The position numbers and the translations under genes are program-made. From Nannocystales bacterium (GTDB lineage: Bacteria > Myxococcota_A > Polyangia > Nannocystales > Nannocystaceae), in assembly GCA_050633305.1 (NCBI GenBank), contig JBOEGF010000018.1, forward strand, positions 64,001 through 128,000: a stretch of 64,000 nt of DNA, in the 5' to 3' direction. A model generated the notes under the pieces. That model had not been told where the DNA came from. It made no database searches and saw only the letters and a list, made by a program, of their open reading frames with translations. Each line of letters starts with the position of its first letter. Position 1 is the first letter of the stretch. Shown one piece after another: positions 41,648 to 57,697 of the stretch.

Positions 41648-43043
41648 TCAAACCGGGGCGGCGTTCAGCTCGGACCAGCGCTGCGGTAGCAGCTCACTCA
41701 GTCGCCGCGCAGGCCAGCCCGCCTCGAGCTTCGTGAACACGTCGAGAAAATACTCGCGCGTGCAGATGTCGAGGTTGCGACAAGTCTGCACCACGGTGTA
41801 CGCCGCGGCGAGTCGGTGCGCGGCGTTCTCGGAGCCAGTGAACAGGAAGTTCTTGCGCCCGATCGCGGGCTTGCGGATCTCGCGCTCGCACGCTCCGTTG
41901 TCGATCTCGAAGCGACCGTCACTGAAGCAGCGACGCACGAAGCCTACGGCAGGGCTGGCTCGCCGGTCCTCAAGCTTGAACGCCTCGAAGAAGCGGCGTC
42001 AGACGCGCATCGTGCAGCCAAGTCGCCACTGGGGCGGAACCACGACGACCTCCTTGCCCTCGGCCTGGAGGGTGGCGCTGTAGCCCTTGTAGTCGTCGAC
42101 TTGGACCTCGCAAGGCGATGAACTCGGCGATGTCCTCAGCTTTCCAAGATTTCGCGAATTGGTAGGCTACGAGACCAGAGCTCGCTCGAAAGCACCACAG
42201 GTGACCGCGGTCTTTTCCGCTGTTGCGGGAGCGGTCGAGGACGTCGAGCCCAGTGTCGTCGACGCCCACCCAGTTCGGGTCGTTCATCAACAGACCCAGC
42301 TGTGCTTCGGCGAGAGGCTCGAGCATGGATGTCGCGTATCGCCAATATCCGTAGGCTGTCGACTCTGGAAAGTCGACGCCAAGTCGACGGAATCGGTCGC
42401 ACTGGCGGTGGACCGGCAGGGCGTCGTCGCATTTGTTCTCGACCAACTCGGCCAACACCGACGGACCCACGCGTAGCGTGCTGTCGGGCACCGAGGCTCG
42501 CTCGGCGGTGAACGCCTCGCCCTGGCACCCCTTGCGCTTGCATGCGAGCTTCTCGCGCCGCTCGACGTGCACCACGAACTTGCCCAGCACGGACTCCAGT
42601 CGCTCGTGCTCGACGTGCCCGAAGCACTCCATCTCTTCGCCGCACAGACGGCACGCCCGCTCGCCCGCGGGCACGGCCACCGAGTTCACGTCGCGCTCGA
42701 CGTCGTCGCCGACCGTCGTCTTGCGACGGCGCTGGCGTCGTTTCTTCGGCGTCTTCGTGTCCTCCGGGTCCGCCTCGGCGAACTCGCTCACCGGCACCTG
42801 TGGACTCTCCGCTGCCGCTTCTTCCTCGGTGCCGCCCAGTGCGAGTACGAGTTGCCGCAAATCTTCCTTCGAGAGCTTCTCGCTCTTGCGCCCGTGCAGC
42901 CGCATCGCCAGCTGCTTGTTTGCCCGCGACAGTTGCTCGACCTTCTTCTCCGCGCGCGCCCGTGCTTCCTCCGACCGCCGCTTGTCTTCGGTCAGCTGTT
43001 GCACTTGACGTCGAAGCTCTTCGAGCTCGCGCTGCGCGTCCAC
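41648..43043 (-). pseudogene. tnpC: IS66 transposase TnpC, disrupted
   Basis: Coiled coil, HGRKSEK, Zn finger, DALPVHRQ, VDDT. Frameshift near 42110 before QVDDYKGY, stop at 41999-42001, and a large apparent deletion before FEIDNGACEREIRKPAIGRKNFLFTGS. Confidence 0.88.
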
Positions 43044-43087
43044 GTATTGTCTTTATCAAGCCCGATCGCCGATGCAAGCGAAACTCT

Positions 43088-43450
43088 TCATGCCACCGCA
43101 GGTCTTGGTCGCGCGTACCGCTTCCGCTTCGTGACGACCTTCGTGTCCACGCCCTCGAGCAGCATCGTCAGCCGCGCAACGTCGACCTCGACGATGCTCT
43201 TACCCTCCTCACCGCGCACGCGCCGAAACGTTCCCGCCTCCAGCCGTTTCATCCAGATCGCGTAGCCGTCCCGATCCCAATAGAGCAGGCGCACCTGGGT
43301 GCCACGGCGATTGCGGAACACGAACAGGTCGCCTTCGAACACGTCGTGCCCGAACTCTCCGGCGACGAGCGCCGCCAGGCCGTCGTAGCTCTTGCGCAGG
43401 TCGGTTGCCTCGGTCGCGACAAGAATACGACCGCGCGGTCGGATCAGCAC
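43088..43450 (-). CDS. tnpB: IS66 accessory protein TnpB
   Basis: TDLRKSYDGL, LFVFRNRRG, LLYWDRDG, KRLEAGTF. Confidence 0.92.
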   Translation of the reverse strand: MLIRPRGRILVATEATDLRKSYDGLAALVAGEFGHDVFEGDLFVFRNRRGTQVRLLYWDRDGYAIWMKRLEAGTFRRVRGEEGKSIVEVDVARLTMLLEGVDTKVVTKRKRYARPRPAVA

Positions 43451-43755
43451 GTGGACTCCAACGCCTCGACGACGCTACGCAGCAGCTCTGCATCGACCGT
43501 TTCTCGGACGACCACGACACGACCTCTGGCCAGCACGATCTCCACCGCGCCCGCGCGCTGACGTCCCGCCGCTTGAACCTGGACGAACGCTGGCGCGCTT
43601 TGCTTCCTCGTCTTCCGATTCGCCTCCGCCCACCGATACAGCATCTCCGGCCCAATGCCGTTCGGCGTCCCGAACTCCCGCGCCGTCTCGCCGCTCGCCT
43701 TCCACCCCGCGACCAGCTCCATCCGCTCCTCTCGTGACCATTTTCGTCGGCTCAT
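43444..43755 (-). CDS. tnpA: IS66 accessory protein TnpA
   Basis: HTH (WKASGETAREF...LYRW), AFVQV, VEIVL. Confidence 0.85.
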   Translation of the reverse strand: MSRRKWSREERMELVAGWKASGETAREFGTPNGIGPEMLYRWAEANRKTRKQSAPAFVQVQAAGRQRAGAVEIVLARGRVVVVRETVDAELLRSVVEALESTC

Positions 43756-43880: not shown

Positions 43881-44312
43881 CTATGTTTCGGCTTCGTAGA
43901 AACGTCGCAGTTCTGTGATGTTGGTGACCCACTGCGAAATTGTCTCTCCGTCCTCAGTCACGGCTTCCCTCGTTGGGAGAGAATCGTGAGGGCTGAGAGG
44001 GTCGAAAGGCTCCTCTAGCTCGTCAAGGAACAGGACGTGGTGTTGGAAGAAGACCATGTCCTGGACGCGGTAGCAGGGCCAGACCGAGATGAAGTTGGAC
44101 GTTGAGGGGTCTGTGATTGAGGAGATGAATAGCGCTCCGTTCCCCTGCTCGACGACGCGTCGCGCGGCCTCAAACCAGTGTTTCTTGTAGGTTGTCGCGG
44201 ACCAGAAACTGAGGTCGGTGCGGAACGTCTCTTGGAACCCGTCGATGACGATGATGCCCATCCCTAGCGTGGCATCGCGTTCAGTCGGAGTAAGGCGGAT
44301 TGAGAAAGACAC
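43881..44312 (-). CDS. Immunity protein (CdiI-like) for the upstream Rhs toxin
   Basis: Starts 4 nt after the toxin stop; visibly lower GC. Motifs I.IDGFQETF..DLSFWS...Y..HW, WPCY and TEDGETISQW resemble Enterobacter cloacae-type CdiI (from memory). Confidence 0.8.
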   Translation of the reverse strand: MSFSIRLTPTERDATLGMGIIVIDGFQETFRTDLSFWSATTYKKHWFEAARRVVEQGNGALFISSITDPSTSNFISVWPCYRVQDMVFFQHHVLFLDELEEPFDPLSPHDSLPTREAVTEDGETISQWVTNITELRRFYEAET

Positions 44313-44316
44313 TCTG

Positions 44317-47300
44317 TTAGTCCTTTAGCCTTTCTGAGAGATCGGGGGAGTATGTTCCCGTCCTTTGGCCTCTTCGGCTGAACTTTTTCCACCCGTCGGT
44401 CACGTTGTGCCCATCGATATCAGGACTGATGAAGGTCTTTCCGTTTGTGAATACATCCGCCCCGTGAGAGTCGAAAGGTGCCTTCTGCGGGGGGATCCTC
44501 TTGTCGTATCCCAGCGCCGCGGCTCGCTCGGAGAGCGAAGGGGGTCTCGGACGATATGCCTTAGGCGCGCGACGGACCGCGCCGGAAGGGTCTACGTAGA
44601 AACCCGTCGAGTCTGCGAGTTGTGCTTGGCGCGCCGAGAGTTCGACTGGACTGTCCCCGCCGCAATCCCCGGGCCCACCTGGCGCCAGACCAAACGGATC
44701 AACCCACGTCAGCGGGTCATCCACATACCCGTGAATCGCCAGCCCACCCGCAAGCCCGATCGGGTCCCGGCTGACATACCCCCCAACGCCCGGGTCGTAG
44801 TACCGGAACCGGTTGTAGAACAACCCGGTTTCCGCATCTTCGTACTGCCCCGGGAATCTCCACGGACACAGCGTCGCATCTCCGTCCGTGACCTCGCAGC
44901 GACCGTACGTATCAGTGACGCCCTGCCAGACGACGCTGCCCGAGGCTCCGGTCAGACACAGCGGTGTCCCGAGATGGTCGGTGAACACGGCCATCGCGCC
45001 GCGTTTCTCGGACACGCGGGCCAGCGGTGAAAAACTCTCGGGCTCGAACAGCCAGGTGATGACACCATCGTCATCCTGCGGGGCAGGGGCCGAGGGTGTG
45101 GTTGCCTGGGTGAGGCACTCCTGCGCGAGCCATCCGAACTGCCCGTCGTCCTGGGCCCGAGCACGCAGCATGTCGAACCATGCGTCGTCGTCTCCAAGCT
45201 TGTCCCGCGCACCGAGCAGGCCCTTCTTTCGGGCGCACAACTCGGGCGTTCGCAGGACGTCGGGCGCATCCGCCTCCCCGCGCCACTCGTGCAGCGGCAC
45301 GTTGCCGTTCCAGACCCAGCGCGTGACCACCCCGTTCGCGTTCTTCTCAACCCGCCTTCCCAAGGCGTCGTAGCGAAAGGACACCGCGGTCCCGTCGGGC
45401 TTGTCGACCTGCGCGAGCTGCCCAGGGCCGTTCCAGTGGAACCACCACCGACCACCGTCGGGATCTTCGCGCTCGGCCAGATTGCCGTCGGCGTCATAGC
45501 GATACGTGCTCACCCCCCCAGGACTGGAGCGCTTGAGGATCTGACCGGCGGTGCCGTACTCGCGGTCGGAGCGGTCGAGCCCCGCGAAGAGGTTGCCGAC
45601 CTCATCGGGGTTGCGAAGCTCGACCTCAGGTTCACCACCGCTGTTCGGTGTGACCTGAGTCTTGTGCAAGAACCCGCGAACGTCGTGCTCGTAGGCGATC
45701 GAGCCCAGGGCGTCGTCTTCGAGCGATCGCAGCTGGTCGCCGGGGTCCCAGCCGTACTTGCGTAGACGATGACTGGTCGGCGTTGCCCCCTGCGGCGGTG
45801 ATGCTTGTCCGACCCAGTGCTGGGTGGGGCGGCCCAGGGCGTCTCGCCACCAATAGCCGCGGGTTGCGTTCTCGCCGTCGCCCACGGTGCGGTCGACTTC
45901 GAGGCCCAACCGGTCTCGGGTGAAGCTGGCGGACCAGCGGTGGGCACCGTCGCGGTAGGCCACGGAGGTGACGTCGCCCATCGGGTTGCGAACGAGGTCG
46001 GCCGCAGCGCCGCGGCTGGACTCCATCGCCACCCGAAGCCCCCGATGATCGTACGCGCTGCCAACCCAGTCCTCGCGCTCTTCTTCGACCCCAGTGACCG
46101 TTTCTTTGATGACCTGTCCGAGCGCGTCGCGATCGAAGGCGACCACCACATCGTCCGCCGCCGCCTCCACCAACCCACCATCCTTGCGATACGCGTATCG
46201 CTCCGACAAGCCATCCGAGTGCTGGACGGACACGAGGTTGCCCGCGTCGTCGTACTCCATCGTACGTGTCCGCGGTGGTTGGTCGTCCTTTGCCTCGCGC
46301 AACACGGCGAGCACGCGTCCCAGCGCGTCACGCGAATACAGCGTGGTTTGGCCGTCCCACTGAACCTCGGCCGCAACCTCGCCGAGTACATCGAGCTCGA
46401 AGTGATGCTCGAGCCCGCGTTCGTTGGTCACCCCGATGAGCTGGCCTTCCGTGTCCCAGCGGTAGCGCACGGTCGCATCGCCACCCGCCACTCGGGTATG
46501 GGTGCGTGAGGCGACCTTGCCCATCTGACAGTACGTAAAGGTCAGGTCCCGGCTGCGGTCACGTGCTCGTAGCACGTTGCCCATCGCGTCGTAGCCGAGG
46601 TCGCGTACGTTGCCGTCGGGCTCCTGCACCCGGACGACGCGACCCAGAGCGTCGTAGACCCGTTTCTGCACGTTGCCGTTCGGGTCGGTGCGCTCGGTGA
46701 CACGCCCCAGTGCGTCGCGTTTCCACCCCGTGGTGCTGCCATCGGGGTGTGTGGCCTTCGCGAGGCCGCCGGCGCTGTTGTACTCGAGCGCGGTGGGCTG
46801 CCCGGCGGCGTCGATGACTTGCCGCAGCTGCTTGCCCTCGTAGGCGTAGTGGGTGGCGTGCCCGAGCGGGTCGACCCGCGAGACCACCCGCCCCATGCCG
46901 TCGTACCGCCAGGTCCACTCGCCGCCCTCGGGCCCGAGCACGGAAACCGGTCGGTTCTTGTCGTCGTAGCGGACCTTGCTGACCCGCTTGCCTCCATCAC
47001 CAAAGGGTGACACGACCATCACCACGTTGCCCTTGGCGTCGTGGGTGGTCTCGGTCCGGCGTCCCATCGGATCGACGACCACGGTCTCTCGATGCGCGTG
47101 GTCGTATTCGTACTGCGTGGTTCCGCCGGCGGCGTCGGTGATCTCGGTGACCATGAACGCGCCGTCGTAGGCGTAGGTCGTCACCTCGCCGAGAGAGTTG
47201 GTGACGGCGGTGGTCCGGCCTTTGCGGTTGTAGTCGATGAGGTGGTGGTAGATGCCTTGCTCAGCGTCGCCTGCCGGGTCGATGCCCCAAGTCTCGACAC

Positions 47301-48741
47301 AGCGGGCGAAGCGGCCGTAGCCGTCGTACTTGAAGTAGAAGGTGAGGCCGTTGCGGTCGGCCTCTCGAACGAGGAGGTGGCGGTCGTAGCCAAACCGCAT
47401 CGGCTTGCCCGCCGCGTCGCGTACTTCGACCAGGTCGCCCGCGTCGTCGTAGAGATACTCCGCATGTTGCCGATGTCCCTCCCCGTCGGCGCTGGGCAGC
47501 CAGATCCGGCGAAGCCGACCACGGGGGTCATGTTCGAGTTTGACGACGCGCCCAGAGGCATCGTGCACCTCGGCCAGACGGGCGCGGTCGTCGTAGCGGT
47601 ACTCGACGGCGAAACCATCGGGGCTGCGGTGCCGAACGATACGGGCCAGCCCTCGATCGGCCTCGTGTGTGGCTTCTCCTGGGATCGGAGCGAACTCGGT
47701 CACCACGCCGCCCGCGTCCTCGAGGCTGAACGCGAAGTTGCCGTGGCTGCGCAACGTGACGCGCTCAACCGGGTGGTAGACGGTGTCGCCCTTGCGCATG
47801 ACGCCGCCTTCGAGCTTTCGCGTGCTGAACTCGACCTCACGACCGTCCGCGGTTTGCAGCGCCACACAATGTGGCTCGAGCCACAGCTTCTGGTCGAGGC
47901 TGTGGGCCCAACCGAATCCCAGCGGCGAGTCGCGGTCGAACCAGTTGCTGCTGTAGTTGCGCTCGAACCGGACCGGCAACGGTCCGGGCAGTGTGAAATC
48001 GACGCCGTCGGTCAGGACACAGCCGTTGGCGACGTTGACCGGGTGCCCGGTCAAAAAACAGGCCGACTTGTGGGCGATGTTTCGTGCGCGTTTGAACTTT
48101 TCGGGGATGACTTTGTCGATGGCCCCGTGAAGTTTTCCGGCCGCCCACTTGCTGCGGAGCGCCCGCATGCCGGCCATCATCATGACCTGCGCCCAGTCGA
48201 TGCCAGGCGGTCCCCCAATCAACACGGGCTTTGGCATGCCCGTGGAGACAACTGCGGAGGTCGGCATGCGAACGGGGTCGCTACAGGAGAGCGCAATCTC
48301 CCCCATGCGCACCGGGTTGGAGCCCATCACCTTCACGGTCATCGAGCCCATGAGCAGCAGGGCGTCGGACGGTGGAGGCATCGGTGGGTCGGGCATGGGG
48401 AGCTTGCCCTTGAGCCCAATCGCCGGTTTGGGCGCTCGTGGGATCGGAGCCCACGACACACCGGGGGGGATGAAAATATGAGGCACGGGCATCGACACCT
48501 CGTCGCCCGTGATTGTGGCGGGAAGCCCGGCGATCCAGACCTTCCCGGGGTCGACCGGAGTGTCGGTGACCCACGCGGTGACGTGCGCGATGAGCTCGTC
48601 CATGATCAGGCCCATCGGGTCGAAGATCAGGCCCATGAACGGATGGGGAAACGGCGTGGGCACGGGCGCGGGCATGGGCACCATCTCCATGTGGAGATCG
48701 ACGCCGACCACGAGGTCGAGCCACTTGCTCGCGATGCTCAC
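44317..48741 (-). CDS. Rhs polymorphic toxin: PAAR-like N-terminus, DUF6531, YD repeats, Ntox21-like RNase tip
   Basis: VGVDLH PAAR-like start; GHPVNVANG, LGFGWAHS; YD repeats; core RFPGQYEDAETGLFYNRFRYYDP, DPIGLAGG, DPFGL; tip SHGADVFTNGKTFISPDIDGHN..GWK. Confidence 0.93.
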   Translation of the reverse strand: MSIASKWLDLVVGVDLHMEMVPMPAPVPTPFPHPFMGLIFDPMGLIMDELIAHVTAWVTDTPVDPGKVWIAGLPATITGDEVSMPVPHIFIPPGVSWAPIPRAPKPAIGLKGKLPMPDPPMPPPSDALLLMGSMTVKVMGSNPVRMGEIALSCSDPVRMPTSAVVSTGMPKPVLIGGPPGIDWAQVMMMAGMRALRSKWAAGKLHGAIDKVIPEKFKRARNIAHKSACFLTGHPVNVANGCVLTDGVDFTLPGPLPVRFERNYSSNWFDRDSPLGFGWAHSLDQKLWLEPHCVALQTADGREVEFSTRKLEGGVMRKGDTVYHPVERVTLRSHGNFAFSLEDAGGVVTEFAPIPGEATHEADRGLARIVRHRSPDGFAVEYRYDDRARLAEVHDASGRVVKLEHDPRGRLRRIWLPSADGEGHRQHAEYLYDDAGDLVEVRDAAGKPMRFGYDRHLLVREADRNGLTFYFKYDGYGRFARCVETWGIDPAGDAEQGIYHHLIDYNRKGRTTAVTNSLGEVTTYAYDGAFMVTEITDAAGGTTQYEYDHAHRETVVVDPMGRRTETTHDAKGNVVMVVSPFGDGGKRVSKVRYDDKNRPVSVLGPEGGEWTWRYDGMGRVVSRVDPLGHATHYAYEGKQLRQVIDAAGQPTALEYNSAGGLAKATHPDGSTTGWKRDALGRVTERTDPNGNVQKRVYDALGRVVRVQEPDGNVRDLGYDAMGNVLRARDRSRDLTFTYCQMGKVASRTHTRVAGGDATVRYRWDTEGQLIGVTNERGLEHHFELDVLGEVAAEVQWDGQTTLYSRDALGRVLAVLREAKDDQPPRTRTMEYDDAGNLVSVQHSDGLSERYAYRKDGGLVEAAADDVVVAFDRDALGQVIKETVTGVEEEREDWVGSAYDHRGLRVAMESSRGAAADLVRNPMGDVTSVAYRDGAHRWSASFTRDRLGLEVDRTVGDGENATRGYWWRDALGRPTQHWVGQASPPQGATPTSHRLRKYGWDPGDQLRSLEDDALGSIAYEHDVRGFLHKTQVTPNSGGEPEVELRNPDEVGNLFAGLDRSDREYGTAGQILKRSSPGGVSTYRYDADGNLAEREDPDGGRWWFHWNGPGQLAQVDKPDGTAVSFRYDALGRRVEKNANGVVTRWVWNGNVPLHEWRGEADAPDVLRTPELCARKKGLLGARDKLGDDDAWFDMLRARAQDDGQFGWLAQECLTQATTPSAPAPQDDDGVITWLFEPESFSPLARVSEKRGAMAVFTDHLGTPLCLTGASGSVVWQGVTDTYGRCEVTDGDATLCPWRFPGQYEDAETGLFYNRFRYYDPGVGGYVSRDPIGLAGGLAIHGYVDDPLTWVDPFGLAPGGPGDCGGDSPVELSARQAQLADSTGFYVDPSGAVRRAPKAYRPRPPSLSERAAALGYDKRIPPQKAPFDSHGADVFTNGKTFISPDIDGHNVTDGWKKFSRRGQRTGTYSPDLSERLKD

Positions 48742-48881: not shown

Positions 48882-49790
48882 TCAGCAGGCGCCGATGGGC
48901 TCGTCGCAGTTTTCGGGGCCGCAGGTCGACGGATACAGTTCGCCACCAATGCAGGTTGCTGCCTCGCCACAGATCAGCGTGGGGTGGCATTGCGAACCGC
49001 AGTCGAACTCGGTGCAGGACCATTGGCCGTCCACTTCGCATAGACAGGTGTTGCATTCGTCGTCCGCCGGGATCTCGTCGCTAGGGGAGCACTGAGGATC
49101 GCAGTCGAGCTCGGTGCAGGACCACTGGCCGTCGACCTCACAGAGACACTCGTTGCAGCCGTCGCCCGCGGGGACTTGGTCGCCCGGGTTGCATTCGTTC
49201 TCGCGGTCGAGCTCGGTGCAGGACCACGTCCCATCGACTTCACAGAGGCATTCGTTGCAGCCGTCGCCCGCGGGGGGTTGGTCGCCCGGGTCGCATTCGC
49301 TCTCGCAGTCGAGCTCGGTGCAGGACCACGTCGCGTCGTCTTGGCACAGGCAGTCGTTGCAGCGATCGTCCGCGAGCTGCTCATCGCCGGGGCTGCACTC
49401 GTTGTCGCAGGCGAGTTCAGTGCAGGTCCAGGACCCATCCGCACCGCACCGCACCGCACCGCACCGCACCGCACGTGCAGGTGTTTGCAGGTGTCGCTGC
49501 TGGGGACGACGTCACCGTCGTCGCACTCCGGCTCGCAGCGGCTCGCGAGATCGGCGCAGCAGTCCTCAATCTCGATGCACGCCGCATCGCATTGACAGGC
49601 TTGGGCCTCGTCGAACTCGGTGTCGCAACGCTCCTCGCAGGAGCCAGCGAGTTCGTCTGCCTTGCCGATCGGCGCGCGGTCGTCCTGAGAGGCTTGAGGC
49701 TCTGAATCCCCGGTCGTGGAAGTCCGCGCAGGCGGTGACGGCCACCAAGGAGAGAAGAGCAGCGGAGGCGAGGGTCTGGAAGGTCGACGG
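48882..49790 (-). pseudogene. Multiply frameshifted Cys-rich lipoprotein (somatomedin-B-like + pacifastin-like repeats)
   Basis: Signal (LLSLVAVTAC), GKAD motif + SMB-like domain (CQCDAACIEIEDCCAD) and five DxCNxCxC...WxCTE repeats lie in different frames. Apparent +1 indels near 49720 and 49485, and a repeat expansion at 49439-49473. Confidence 0.75.
49439..49473 (+). repeat. Pentanucleotide microsatellite (CCGCA)7
   Basis: Seven perfect units. Confidence 0.97.
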
Positions 49791-49799
49791 TGGCCCGTC

Positions 49800-50050
49800 C
49801 GCCCAGGGGGTGTCCCACCAGGCCCACATGTTGGCCGTCGAAACTCTCTCCAAGCAAAAGGGGGGACCGGCCCGCCACATCGCGGTCGAGTCGGATGAGG
49901 GCGACGTCTCCGTTCTCGGCGCGAAACGATGCCTCGCAGCGATACAGATCGTCGGGGTCCAGAAAACTGGTGTCGTCGTTCCGCTGGGCGTCGTTGAACC
50001 CAAACAGAAGCTGGGAGGACTCGCACGCGTGTTGGTCGCCGATGTTGCCT
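49800..50050 (-). pseudogene. Internal fragment of a trypsin-like serine protease
   Basis: C...LLFGF...LYRC...GDVALIRLDRDVAGRSPL...VGLVGHPLG; no catalytic His or Ser motif present. Confidence 0.55.
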
Positions 50051-50244
50051 CTTGCGACCCGCACTTCACTGCCGACCGGGCCCGTGCCGGTCCCGTCAGA
50101 ACCGCTGTGACCCCGAGGTCGCACGGCGGGCACCAGTCTCGCCGGCTGAAGCGGCGCGAACCTGTCTGAGCGCTGTAACATCGTCCGGAGCACGCCCGTC
50201 GTCGAAGCGAACGGGCGCCGCGCCCGAGCGAAGCTGTGGTTGCC

Positions 50245-51993
50245 ATGCGAGTCGAACGAGTGATCTGGAGTGGAGCCCTGCTCTTGCTCGGGGCGTGCCG
50301 GGACGCAGATGAGGCTCCCGAGGCTGACAATGGCGTGGTCACCGGGGCCGACGTCGAGCTTCCTGAACCGGTCGACTGTGAGGCGTTCGAGATCGCGGAC
50401 CGCCTGCGCTGGACCGGAAACGGTGCCGCAAGTCCGGGGTTGCGGTCGGTGGCGGTCCATGGCGCGCGGGGGTTCACGTGCAGTGATGACGGCGGCCTGG
50501 CGACTTGGGAGCTGAGCAGCGAAGCACCGGCCCTGATCGAGGAGTCGGACCAAGCCTGCACCGCGGTCGCGACAGACGGCACCTGGCTCGCGGTCGCCCG
50601 GGCATCGGAAGTCGAATTGCGCACCGTCGACGACACGGCGGTTGTGGGGACATGGGCTACCGCGTCGGTCGTCGAGTCCATGACGCTGCTCGATGGACGT
50701 CTGTGGGTCGCTGCTGGCGTGGGCGGTTGGGCAGAACTCGACGTCGAAGCGGGACTGCAGGAGGTCCGACGATTCTCCGATGAGCAGTCCGACGCGCGGG
50801 CGGTCACCGCGATCGATGGCTTCGCGTACGTCGCAGACGCTCGGGCAGGGTTGCGGGCGTTCGAGCTCGGAGGCGACGATGCGCTCCTACGAGAGACGCT
50901 CGCCATCGACCCGGTCCTCGACGTGGTCGCGCACGACGGTGGACTCGCGGTCGCGACCGTCGAAGGGGTCGCTTGGATCGGGATTTCGAATCCTGCCTCT
51001 CCGGAACTGCTGGGCCAAGCCGAGACGCCAGGGTCCGCGTTGGCGGTCGAAGTCGTTGGGGGACAACTCGTCACGGCTGACTTCAAAGACATCGCGGTCG
51101 TCTCGGGGGAGGACGAGCCCCGCCTGCTCGACGTCGAGCCGCTGATCGGAGACGACCTCCTGGACCGCACCCGCGCGCTGTCCGTCGACCCCGTCACCGG
51201 TCGCCTCTTTGTGGCCCAATGGGACACGCTGCAGGCGTTCGACACCGCGTGCGATGGCGCGTCTCCGTCGTTGTGGCCCGATCGCCGCACCGTCGACTTT
51301 CGCGTGGTCTCTGCGCGCCGGACCCGCAGTCTCGCGGTTTCGCTGCGCAACCAAGGGGACGCGCCGCTAGCGGTCTCCGAGGTCCGAACCTCGATGGTCG
51401 GCGTGACCAACGACTTCGAACCGCTGACGATCGCTCCTGGCAATGTCGTGGCGTTCGAGGTCACGTTCGAGTCCCCCGACACGCAACCCTATGAAGGGGC
51501 GCTGGAGATCGTGAGCAATGATCCGGACCAGCCGGTTTTCGTACTGCCGATGTCTGCGAACATTCGTGGAGTCCGGGTCGGCGAACCTGTCGTTCCGTTT
51601 CGCAACGTCGACACGCTTGGTCGGGTGTGGGAACCCGATGACGCGCTCGACAAGGTTCTGCTGCTCGCCTACTTCGCGGACTGGTGAACGGCCTGCAACC
51701 GGGAGTTTCCCGGTTTCGAGGCCACGCTGTGGCGGGGCTACAAAGACGAGGGGTTGGTGATGCTCGCGCAGAGCGACCAAAGCGTGGAACGCATGGTGAC
51801 CTTTGGGGCGGAGTACGGCTCCACGTTTCCCCTGGTCCGTGACGACACAACGTACGAGATGTATGACGACCCCGGGCCTGGGAACTTTGCACTCGAAGTG
51901 ATCGTCGACCGGGAGGGCATTGTCCGATTTGCGGAGCACGGGTCGAGCACCGAGGCCTTGGAGGCCGTCGTGGTCTCCCTGCTGTCCGAGTAA
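50245..51993 (+). CDS. Multidomain selenoprotein: lipoprotein, LVIVD-like beta-propeller, Ig-like domain, TlpA/AhpC-like redoxin with UxxC
   Basis: In-frame TGA 51685-51687 in KVLLLAYFADW-U-TACNREFP. The frame continues without another stop to TAA 51991-51993 (TFPLVRD, VIVDREGIVRF). Confidence 0.88.
51697..51715 (+). promoter_or_regulatory. Putative bacterial SECIS element
   Basis: AACCGGGA-GTT-TCCCGGTT hairpin starting 9 nt after the UGA; G-containing apical loop about 17 nt downstream. Confidence 0.75.
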
Positions 51994-52085
51994 CGTCGGT
52001 TTACGGGATGCTTACCCGAGCTTCTCCATCGGCTGACCCCCTCCTCGGGTGCCCGGGGCTATTGAAGAGGTGGAGAGAAACACCG

Positions 52086-53030
52086 ATGAAACGAACCGCC
52101 CTGTTCCTTGCAGCCCTCGCCCTCGCGGCCTGCGACAGCGAACCTCAAGACCCATCCGAAGCCCGCCTCGCCGAGCTCGATTCTGAAGACGACCTTGCGG
52201 ACTCGGAGGTCCGCCACGAAGGTCACCACGGCAAGCACGGCAAACGCCACGACCTCGGTGCCGAGGTCTGCGAGGCCGTTGCATGCACCGACGCGCAACT
52301 GGAGCAGGTGAACACCATCTTCGCTCGGCCGGAGCGTGGAGAACGACCCGAGCGACCGGATCTTTCGGAGGCCAATGCGACCCTTGCCGAAGCATTCGCG
52401 GGTGCTGAGTTCGGTACGGCAGACATGCGTGCATGGTCCGAACAATTGCCCGCTCGACCTGACCGCAAGTCCCACCGGGTCGACGCCATGTCCGAGCTAT
52501 ACACGGTCTTGACGTCGGAGCAGCGGACGGTGCTGGCAGAGAAGGTCTCAGCCGGTGAGGTCTTCGCGGGTCGAGGCGAAGGGCACCGCAAGCACGGTGG
52601 GCCTGATGCCGACGAGCGCCAAGACCGTCACGTGACGCACTTCTGCGAGCCGCTGGACTGCAGCGACGCGCAGCAGGCCGAACTCTCGGAGATCTTCGGG
52701 AAGAAGCACGACTCCCGGCCGGACCCACAGACCCGCCTGGATGCGATCGCCGCGGCGTTCAAGGCCGACACGTTCGACGCCGAAGGCCTTCAGGGTTCCT
52801 GTGAACATGATACCGGTGACAAGTCAGAGCTCGTCGTCCAGGTTCATGCCGTTCTGACGCCCGAGCAACGCACGATCTTGTCGGAACGCATCGCAGAGCA
52901 CGGCCCTCGAGGCCTGATGGGCAAGGGGGGAAAACACCATCGCAGGGGGAAGCGCCGCGGCAAAGGCAAGCGCCGAGGTCGACCCGGGGGCCGCGAGGCA
53001 GCACAGGACGGCGGACCCGAGTTCGGTTGA
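52086..53030 (+). CDS. Spy/CpxP-like (LTxxQ) lipoprotein, tandem duplicated domain
   Basis: Lipobox LAAC; two repeats, each C..L/V.C(T/S)DAQ...VLT(S/P)EQR; His/Arg/Gly-rich tails. Confidence 0.8.
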   Translation: MKRTALFLAALALAACDSEPQDPSEARLAELDSEDDLADSEVRHEGHHGKHGKRHDLGAEVCEAVACTDAQLEQVNTIFARPERGERPERPDLSEANATLAEAFAGAEFGTADMRAWSEQLPARPDRKSHRVDAMSELYTVLTSEQRTVLAEKVSAGEVFAGRGEGHRKHGGPDADERQDRHVTHFCEPLDCSDAQQAELSEIFGKKHDSRPDPQTRLDAIAAAFKADTFDAEGLQGSCEHDTGDKSELVVQVHAVLTPEQRTILSERIAEHGPRGLMGKGGKHHRRGKRRGKGKRRGRPGGREAAQDGGPEFG

Positions 53031-56002: not shown

Positions 56003-57697
56003 TCACCGGTAGGGACCGCGGTGCCGCATGAAACCGCGACTCATCGTGAGCAGTTCTTCGACCGTCTTCACGAGATCGAGGACGCGGGGGACGGGGGATT
56101 CGAGCTCTGCGTGTGTCGATTCCGCGCTGATCTGTAGCAGACGGACACACTTGGGGAGTTCTGTCTCAAATGGGGCATCGGACCCCGCGTGCCAGACCGT
56201 ACGATGCTTCCGTCCGATCATCTCCGGGGCGAAGACGTCAACGGCGGTGTGGTCGGGTTGTCCGGTGGGCTTGAAGTGGGTGCGGACCTCGACCCGGTGC
56301 CCGTCCCATTCTGCGTTGAGTGCGAAGGAGCCCACATGAAGTTCAGCACCCAGTCGGTGTGCCGCCTCCCTCCAATCGTCGAGTTGATGTTCGAGCGCGA
56401 GCGGCGGTGGAAGCTGCGCGCGGGCGTCCTCGATGGCGAGGGCGATGTGGTGGAGTCGCTCGGCGAACCTCGTCAGCGGCCCCACGTTTCGATCCCCACG
56501 CTTGTCGAACCGCATCCGGGTGTCATCGATGTCCAAGACCCGTAGGTCGTGGAGGTCGTCGCCGAGCGCGGCCTGGAGCGCCTCGAGTTGTCGTCGCTCC
56601 CGGGCCTTGAGCTGGCCGCTCCGCCAACTGAGCCCGAGCCCCAGGTCCACGAAGTGAATCTCTCCGACGACCCACGAACCGGTTCGGCGGGATTCGGGGA
56701 AGAGGCGAACGTCGGTTTTTCCGACGGTTCTTCGGAGGAATCCCTCCGCGAAGTCGAACCCGCTTCGGCGTCCTGCTTCTCGCCAGACGAGCTGTTGTCG
56801 ACGGGACCCGACGGCGGGCGGGAGCGACTCGATCTCCTCTTCACCGGGGCGACGATGCCGGACGTGGACAGGGACCATCATGCTCGGGTCTGTGGTCCAC
56901 GCGATGACGGCCTCGACTTGCAGGCGCCACGAGAGCGCGACGCGGCGGTGTTCGAAGCCCACTGCGAGGTTGGGTGGAAGTCGCAGGTTGAGCGGGACAA
57001 CATCCAAGCTCTCCTCGCCGTCCGGTGCGATCTCCAGGTTCCACTGTGCAACGCGCACGAAGTGTTCAACGGCGCCCAGGAAGCCTGTCACCCGTTCGAC
57101 CGCCCACAGCGTGGTTTGAAGTTGTTCGTAGTTGGACGCGTCAACGCCCGCGAGTGCGACCGATCCTCGGACACGCCCCCCGGGCTCGAGTTCATGCGAA
57201 CTCAGCGACAGCTCGAAGTAGGGCATGCCCGTGTGGGGTCCCTCGAGCGCCGAGACAAACACCTGCCGTTTTGTGCTCGGTGGCCGGGGCGGGTCGATGC
57301 CCCGAACATTGAGAACGAACCGGGCCTTGGCCGCAGGCCACCACGGGATGTCGACGCAGACCCGCGCGGTGTAACCCACCTCGACGTGTCGACCGCGGTA
57401 GCTGTTGGGGACGCCCGGTGGGAACTTGAAGCGAATGTCGAATGTATGCTCGCCCTCGCCGAGTTCCCCGTGGGCAAATGGGCTGGACGTCGCCCGGAAG
57501 AAGACGGACGACTCCCCGTGGCGCCCGTATTGGCTTTGGGTGTACCAAGACTCTTCGCCGACGAACTCGACCACGACCGAGGTCACGGGCAGCGGAGCCG
57601 GGCAACGGAGTACGACGCGCGCGGTGTACTCGCGTCCCGCGTCGATGAGGCGCGGGGCGTACAGGGACACCTCGGGGCGTGTCTTGAGAAGACCCAC
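56003..57697 (-). CDS. Arrestin/SpoOM-like beta-sandwich protein
   Basis: Two arrestin-like modules (FKFPPGVPNSYRG...VDIPWW; LRLPPNL...WRLQVEAVIAW). Confidence 0.65.
   Translation of the reverse strand: MGLLKTRPEVSLYAPRLIDAGREYTARVVLRCPAPLPVTSVVVEFVGEESWYTQSQYGRHGESSVFFRATSSPFAHGELGEGEHTFDIRFKFPPGVPNSYRGRHVEVGYTARVCVDIPWWPAAKARFVLNVRGIDPPRPPSTKRQVFVSALEGPHTGMPYFELSLSSHELEPGGRVRGSVALAGVDASNYEQLQTTLWAVERVTGFLGAVEHFVRVAQWNLEIAPDGEESLDVVPLNLRLPPNLAVGFEHRRVALSWRLQVEAVIAWTTDPSMMVPVHVRHRRPGEEEIESLPPAVGSRRQQLVWREAGRRSGFDFAEGFLRRTVGKTDVRLFPESRRTGSWVVGEIHFVDLGLGLSWRSGQLKARERRQLEALQAALGDDLHDLRVLDIDDTRMRFDKRGDRNVGPLTRFAERLHHIALAIEDARAQLPPPLALEHQLDDWREAAHRLGAELHVGSFALNAEWDGHRVEVRTHFKPTGQPDHTAVDVFAPEMIGRKHRTVWHAGSDAPFETELPKCVRLLQISAESTHAELESPVPRVLDLVKTVEELLTMSRGFMRHRGPYR

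Follow-up and report, generated by a model that had tools for sequence, protein, structure and literature searches.

An in-frame TGA very probably read as selenocysteine in a predicted propeller-Ig-redoxin lipoprotein of a Nannocystales bacterium

Sequence comparison leads us to read the TGA at 51685-51687 in the genome of a Nannocystales bacterium as selenocysteine (Sec), an assignment that we consider close to certain. It follows from the combination of a covarying SECIS hairpin, the position of the codon within a UxxC motif, Sec machinery encoded in the genome, and a reading frame that stays open beyond the codon. The complete product is probably a single protein of 582 residues, anchored by a lipid outside the cytoplasm and acting as a ResA/TlpA-type thiol-disulfide reductase. 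UxxC redoxin selenoproteins and their catalytic chemistry are already known; the 2026 catalogue (PMC13188914) does not mention the propeller-Ig-redoxin architecture by name. New here are a branch with Ala or Ser at the thioredoxin cis-proline position and the repeated change between Sec and Cys within the family.

Reading frame and domain layout

The window—the whole 64,000-nucleotide stretch of DNA analysed—contains one 582-codon frame at 50245-51993 on the plus strand and, when TGA is translated as U, this TGA is its sole interruption. An earlier note on the same DNA had described a 483-aa ORF that ends at the active-site position of a redoxin; the table 11 ORF does stop at 51687 and has that length if counted from an upstream GTG at 50236. 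The W-U-T-A-C motif and the roughly 100 further codons proposed there were likewise borne out: TGA-ACG-GCC-TGC (51685-51696) places residue 481 at the nucleophile position within L-A-Y-F-A-D-W-U-T-A-C-N-R-E-F-P, and 101 codons follow up to a TAA. With GC1/2/3 values of 0.64/0.43/0.83 after the TGA versus 0.74/0.49/0.78 before it, the coding GC pattern is kept. In window coordinates, the features are:

50245..51993, plus strand: whole gene, 582 aa including Sec481, TAA stop; homologues are equal in length and layout
50245..50298, plus strand: predicted lipoprotein signal peptide, ending in L-G-A-C (Cys18), from sequence and alignment
50299..50376, plus strand: acidic linker of low confidence, about residues 19-44 (pLDDT <50 for residues 1-35)
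50392..51252, plus strand: seven-bladed beta-propeller, LVIVD-related, about residues 50-336 (28 strands in the model)
51262..51570, plus strand: Ig-like domain without cysteine, about residues 340-442 (Pfam matches)
51577..51990, plus strand: ResA/TlpA-like thioredoxin-fold domain, about residues 445-582 (PF00578, solved relatives)
51685..51687, plus strand: in-frame TGA, read as Sec481, first position of UxxC; opposite the first Cys of the ResA CxxC, and TGC in Cys homologues
51694..51696, plus strand: Cys484, predicted resolving cysteine; invariant in 96 of 96 rows, 93 loci having been collected by a pattern that requires this Cys
51697..51715, plus strand: predicted bacterial SECIS hairpin, overlapping codons N-R-E-F-P-G (model fit and covariation)
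51889..51891, plus strand: Ala549 at the thioredoxin cis-proline position, opposite the Pro of ResA S-P-L-P-T-T-F

The domain order of propeller, Ig-like domain and redoxin had also been proposed before, and Pfam matches, an AlphaFold model (37-row alignment; pLDDT 89.3, pTM 0.87, residues 1-35 disordered) and a fold search agree on it. Searched as a whole, the model returned seven-bladed WD40-type propellers (Z ~32, 10-17% identity) and no other folds; as matches to a model, these show the predicted fold and no function. The suggested LVIVD likeness of the propeller held among relatives, 13 of 37 of which match at E ≤ 0.001 (best 3e-27), whereas this protein itself scores 18.1 bits for PF08309 (LVIVD) against a Pfam cut-off of 20.2. 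The Ig-like domain is matched by PF22544 (31.7 bits, cut-off 25.5) and PF07610 (31.5, cut-off 26.1), with NF012200 (choice-of-anchor D) under its cut-off on this protein. Within the redoxin domain, PF00578 reaches 34.2 bits, over its cut-off of 26, and PF08534 16.5, under its cut-off of 26.6. The nearest solved relatives of this domain are 2LS5, at E 2e-10, and ResA entries of the B. subtilis type, among them 1ST9 at E 3e-8; in the model, helix 482-502 begins right after Sec481 and Ala549 immediately precedes strand 550-554. In the ESM Atlas, all leads stayed below 0.9 and pointed to LVIVD/Ig clusters without names, 463-509 aa in length.

Cysteines stand at positions 18, 45, 79, 105, 336 and 484. 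The one that follows the hydrophobic stretch, Cys18, which we take to be the lipobox cysteine, is aligned in 31 of 37 rows of alignment A2; the remaining six rows are without the N-terminus. Cys79 is conserved in 76% and Cys105 in 93% of 96 rows. The model puts both at the ends of strands that would form the top face of the propeller (convention of PMC6107167), and the two presumably pair. A complex prediction with the propeller and the redoxin domain of a Cys relative, P0107, scored 0.12 (mark 0.32), a value that bears on docking in neither direction.

An assembly error at the TGA is unlikely: a contig of run X1, which is possibly the source sample, spans 51646-52100 with three differences, none of them in the TGA and hence neither a TGC nor a TGT in its place, and the metagenome loci L145 and L146 have the same motif and hairpin as the gene at 50245-51993. 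The earlier note had anticipated that standard annotation would split the gene in two. The databases do hold its truncated N-terminal part, with 12 of 13 database relatives stopping at the residue before the TGA and the thirteenth being a shorter fragment.

SECIS hairpin, Sec machinery and the case for recoding

The hairpin at 51697-51715 starts 9 nt past the UGA and consists of eight pairs and a 3-nt GUU loop (-11.4 kcal/mol), matching the earlier description of an 8-bp stem with a G-containing loop. Its loop lies 17 nt past the UGA. All four constraints of the bSECIS model, as given in the Fig. 2A legend of PMC13188914, are satisfied: a loop of 3-9 nt with a G in its first two places, a stem of 4-16 bp, 16-37 nt from the UGA, and an MFE ≤ -7.5. 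Hairpin stability by itself is weak evidence, and was dropped as proof on its own, since 177 of 4532 long TGA-ended frames—a loose set, spurious frames included, from a 66% GC genome—have a model-fitting hairpin equally stable at -11.4, and 539 have one at -7.5. It is covariation in homologues that is decisive.

In an ungapped alignment of 31 TGA rows, 86.3% of the cells pair and five of the eight pairs change on both sides. The rows are related, so that shuffle counts are not probabilities and the counts overstate independence; with this in mind, cells changed on both sides number 50 versus a shuffle mean of 14.4 (0 of 500 shuffles), and covariation in these rows is 0.569 versus at most 0.162 for slid registers. 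Despite the kinship, the stem changes span different amino acids and three branches. Two of the five covariation measures, namely pairs with a change and further pair types, did not exceed the shuffles. RNAalifold, unaided, recovered the same six core pairs. All four variable pairs are closed in 29 of the 31 TGA rows, in none of ten Cys rows (five full family members and five plain TlpA-like proteins) and in one of 15 terminal TGA stops. The same holds for 69 of 74 further loci, pattern hits from outside the first set, the DNA pattern having left these four pairs free. At the Pro codon, the silent third base and its partner are complementary in each of 30 rows, 22 of which use CCA or CCT, rare codons that together make up about one fifth of Pro codons genome-wide. 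The element offers a clean natural covariation set within coding sequence, of use for bSECIS models.

The Sec machinery, for which the earlier note had proposed a search, is present in the genome (11.0 Mb, 65.9% GC): selA scores 397 bits (cut-off 268), selB 265 (242), selD 367 (125) and tRNA-Sec 67 (47), with ARAGORN concurring on tRNA-SeC(tca). The selD gene carries one in-frame TGA itself. Among 30 genomes drawn from the 93 TGA-form loci, selA is over the cut-off in 28; one further genome gave a split match, and in one none was found.

Could the TGA be a true stop, through a nonsense mutation or in a deliberately split gene, or else specify Trp or Cys under another code? Gene callers do terminate the protein there, a TTG start 66 nt downstream could yield a 79-codon tail, and TGA is the commonest stop of this genome (1215 of 2103 long frames). 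We nevertheless judge such readings very improbable. Termination would sever the thioredoxin fold past its first core strand. More than 100 diverged genes from several phyla have a TGA at the same catalytic position, and in these the open frame runs on to a normal thioredoxin C-terminus; the hairpin covaries solely in TGA forms. A simple nonsense mutation had been named in the earlier note as one outcome that would overturn recoding; homologues keep both the TGA and the hairpin, and the Cys homologues that it had suggested looking for do have TGC opposite the TGA and are without the hairpin. Global reassignment of TGA is excluded, since 40 of 93 members use a second TGA as a true stop.

Family spread and active-site changes

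A search among 60 relatives returned many long matches, with one TGA each. From these loci and 20 more regions, 43 distinct sites were taken; once two Sec redoxins from a different family (on the minus strand of L025 and the plus strand of L019) had been left out, the 31 TGA and ten Cys rows remained. When the contigs of the genome collection were searched with the protein alone, no relative was found; the DNA pattern Y-F-A-x-W/F-TGA-x-x-C-x-x-E-F/L-P succeeded, recovering 93 stretches. Among 81 pattern matches with long flanks, propeller and Ig-like domain lie upstream in 76, the Ig-like domain only in three, and neither in two. Records with the family are labelled as Myxococcota (Nannocystaceae, Polyangiaceae), Chloroflexota, Acidobacteriota and Bradymonadales. 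The distribution is patchy, as only 10 of 301 genomes in an even sample of the phylum match at E ≤ 1e-18, with one TGA in each of the 15 matches. On the family tree, the nearest titled rows, L071 and L087, are Myxococcota. A profile search over 1.84 billion representatives was dominated by long LVIVD/Ig repeat proteins and gave few full-length rows. One member, locus L068, belongs to Paraliomyxa miuraensis SMH-27-4, a strain available in culture.

Contig C5 of the organism's own genome carries a tandem pair of paralogues. Tandem pairs whose stop and start codons touch or overlap are frequent among the family genes, examples being L046 (G000:C5:194826-198600), L012, L029 and L031. A second type of redoxin lipoprotein, with the motif G-A-x-W-U/C-G-x-C-x-x-E, adjoins family genes in three loci (L025:336-1139, minus strand; L019:3171-4217, plus strand; L068:9-998, minus strand), two with TGA and one with Cys. 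Separately, the plus strand of G000:C43 near 106109 holds a likely Sec redoxin, R-G-F-W-U-P-A-C, with a model-fitting hairpin.

With respect to the cis-proline position, 96 near-full-length rows comprise 89 with Pro, four with Ala and three with Ser. The seven Ala/Ser rows form one branch (FastTree support 99; IQ-TREE 98/95 for the six sampled). Ala also occupies this position in five of five metagenome loci found with a W-TGA pattern that made no demand on it, L143 and L144 being identical over the motif and apparently the same sequence. The thioredoxin cis-proline is described as more conserved than CxxC, with a role in substrate binding and release and in preventing metal binding (PMC2757866, PMC2665069). 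Its absence makes a plain ResA-like mechanism less secure for this branch. Among solved structures the closest relative, 2LS5, is likewise non-Pro at this position, which cautions against over-reading Ala549.

The Cys forms do not cluster on the tree, which needs two Sec/Cys changes (30 of 96 rows, unrooted), and a topology constrained to unite the five Cys rows is rejected (p-AU 2e-86; LG+G4, IQ-TREE). By this tree, at least two switches between Sec and Cys took place in the family. If there were just two, one or more of them was a reversion from Sec to Cys; the alternative is three independent gains of Sec in the same SECIS register. Sec-to-Cys changes are reported to be rare in bacteria (PMC13188914). 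Loss of the Sec machinery was rejected as the cause of the Cys forms: selA is over the cut-off in eight of eight genomes, five of them with Cys forms.

Proposed function, known systems and gene neighbourhood

Disulfide reduction or isomerisation is the job that we consider fairly probable, and a DsbD-fed envelope disulfide reductase is its most likely form. SelB would bind the GUU-loop hairpin and deliver Sec at the UGA, and the protein would be exported and lipidated at Cys18. Sec481 would then attack a disulfide, or other oxidised sulfur, of an envelope protein; Cys484 would resolve the mixed selenenylsulfide, and a DsbD-type membrane protein of the genome would re-reduce the redoxin. By analogy with NHLRC2/SOQ1, the propeller may select the substrate and the Cys-free Ig domain may position the redoxin, with the active site facing the propeller as pTM and this analogy suggest. 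Ala in place of cis-proline might alter substrate docking and release in this branch. When selenium is lacking, UGA termination would leave an inactive 480-residue propeller-Ig product. We infer the substrate, Sec incorporation and every step past recoding, as well as the surface location; of the exported surface lipoprotein claimed earlier, it is the lipoprotein-type signal that is seen in the sequence.

A DsbD-type protein is encoded on contig C4, unlinked to the gene (PF02683 177 bits, C-terminal CVPC domain). Of the NCBIfam models, the ResA one fits best in 30 of 37 rows, while no model in that collection covers the family and all named-family scores are under their cut-offs; this protein scores 41.5 vs 170 for NF002854 (ResA), 19.9 vs 123 for TIGR00385 and 17.2 vs 210 for NF041202. 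Neighbour clustering over the loci compared revealed no conserved partner gene beyond close relatives (genus), and no sigma-70 promoter-like site was found near the gene.

Given Sec insertion, several other functions deserve weighing. A Sec/Cys pair over a seven-bladed propeller that has given up cis-proline might bind or exchange a soft metal, or trap a specific envelope substrate. We find this doubtful; if true, it would represent uncatalogued exported selenium chemistry in myxobacteria and neighbours, and would sit in a family where Sec also reverted to Cys within Sec-competent genomes. The narrower proposal that Sec481/Cys484 binds a soft metal or cluster (Cu, Zn, Fe-S), as a sensor, chaperone or reductase for metal-site cysteines, draws on the supported branch in which Ala or Ser stands where the cis-proline would be, with 7 of 96 rows and in addition the five metagenome loci. 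It appears unlikely, given that the other 89 rows keep Pro with the same architecture, that 2LS5 is non-Pro there too, that the 96 rows show no extra conserved His, Cys or Met ligands near the site, and that no metal genes are conserved nearby in the loci compared. An oxidase (DsbA-like, the opposite of StoA) introducing disulfides into the organism's many cysteine-rich exported proteins is quite improbable: the main family branch does have U-P-V-C, with Pro second as in oxidases, and a cysteine-rich somatomedin-B/pacifastin gene is encoded a short distance upstream, on the opposite strand. Against this, the motif of this copy is U-T-A-C, its fold resembles ResA/TlpA and has no DsbA helical insertion, and no such Cys-rich neighbour turned up beside the orthologues searched.

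Nor do we favour an envelope peroxide or sulfoxide reductase, rather unlikely in our view, in which Sec481 would be oxidised by hydroperoxide or would repair oxidised residues, possibly relaying electrons to Cys79-Cys105. The PF00578 (AhpC-TSA) match and weak matches to peroxiredoxin and GPx models in some rows would fit such an enzyme, as would the neighbouring Spy/CpxP-family gene in the same direction, which is kept in one same-genus locus. SOQ1, a thioredoxin-plus-propeller protein, is described as having methionine sulfoxide reductase activity that needs a Cys pair in its C-terminal domain (10.1101/2024.11.01.621559); the Ig domain here is Cys-free, and Cys79-Cys105 may be a plain structural disulfide. 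The protein is also without the peroxiredoxin motif or catalytic Arg. Peroxiredoxins are marked by PxxxTxxC and by Arg at the cis-proline position (PMC13188914, PMC2757866), and membership was rejected for this protein, which has Y-F-A-D-W-U-T-A-C in place of PxxxTxxC/U and Ala549 in place of Arg.

The favoured reading, a Sec-dependent reductase, has relatives among known systems. Among the 119 families in Table 1 of PMC13188914 are UxxC selenoproteins assigned to PF00578, cd02966 and PF08534. The UxxC AhpC-TSA/redoxin selenoproteins among them share with our gene a PF00578 match over the cut-off, one Sec, the UxxC motif and a bacterial SECIS; judged by the names in the table, none is given as a fusion with a propeller, Ig or lipoprotein part, and a representative could still share the architecture. 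ResA, TlpA, CcmG (DsbE) and StoA have in common with it the fold, the CxxCxxE-F-P motif, a membrane anchor (predicted here) and the best solved relatives. They differ in that our gene has Sec for the first Cys, a propeller and an Ig-like domain in front, Ala for cis-proline, scores far under the family cut-offs, and no cytochrome c maturation genes nearby.

In NHLRC2 and SOQ1, too, a single chain combines a beta-propeller with a thioredoxin-like domain. For NHLRC2, PMC6107167 describes an active site in a cleft at the propeller top face and bacterial homologues without conserved neighbours. Their domain order is reversed, with an N-terminal Trx-like domain carrying CC(I/V)NC (CCINC) rather than UxxC and a six-bladed NHL propeller rather than the seven-bladed LVIVD-type one here. 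NHLRC2 keeps the cis-proline and SOQ1 has a redox-active C-terminal domain. We treat the likeness as analogy, not as homology of architecture. The DUF1573 selenoproteins (OS_HP2, NF041425) share a PF07610-type Ig-like domain in a selenoprotein, but have the motif UGC, whereas the Ig domain here is without Cys or Sec and scores 19.3 against the NF041425 cut-off of 100.

We found no publication on selenoproteins of Myxococcota or of the LVIVD/beta-propeller type, though subscription papers and selenoproteome supplements may list members; the text of PMC13188914 has 0 matches for 'Myxococc'. According to the same source, aerobes rarely keep selenoproteins. The genes described here add a multi-phylum, often multi-copy family of multidomain selenoproteins, predicted to be exported, which are present in protein databases solely as truncated entries labelled 'hypothetical' or Ig-domain. 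With Sec and Cys, and likewise Pro and Ala, alternating naturally within a common scaffold, and with L068 as a cultured member, the family lends itself to testing what advantage Sec brings in extracytoplasmic proteins and what role cis-proline plays beside Sec.

Several neighbours of the gene in the window merit mention. A cysteine-rich exported gene at 48882-50026 (minus strand) encodes a somatomedin-B domain followed by four pacifastin-like repeats, and is split in two frames exactly at about seven GCACC pentamer units near 49440-49475, a run that represents either a switch by strand slippage, possibly phase-variable, or an error of assembly. Contig C44 carries a paralogue of the repeat part of this gene. 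At 43881-48741 (minus strand), an Rhs protein (DUF6531, RHS repeats, weak Ntox21-like end) is followed by a CdiI-type immunity gene; the Rhs N-terminus shares 86-89% identity with a gene found upstream of the orthologous selenoprotein genes of L009 and L010. In orthologues from the same genus the upstream position is again occupied by a divergent Rhs gene, and in one of them the Spy/CpxP-family gene downstream is retained. The latter, at 52086-53030 (plus strand) and 92 bp past the selenoprotein stop, encodes a His-rich Spy/CpxP (LTXXQ) protein with a lipoprotein-like start, and such a gene also adjoins the orthologue in L047. Further away, an IS66-type element with tnpA, tnpB and tnpC occupies 41970-43755 (minus strand), its tnpC looking broken, with a frame that ends at 357 aa and covers 123 of 284 transposase model positions. 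A bacterial arrestin-N-domain protein of 564 aa is encoded at 56003-57697 (minus strand).
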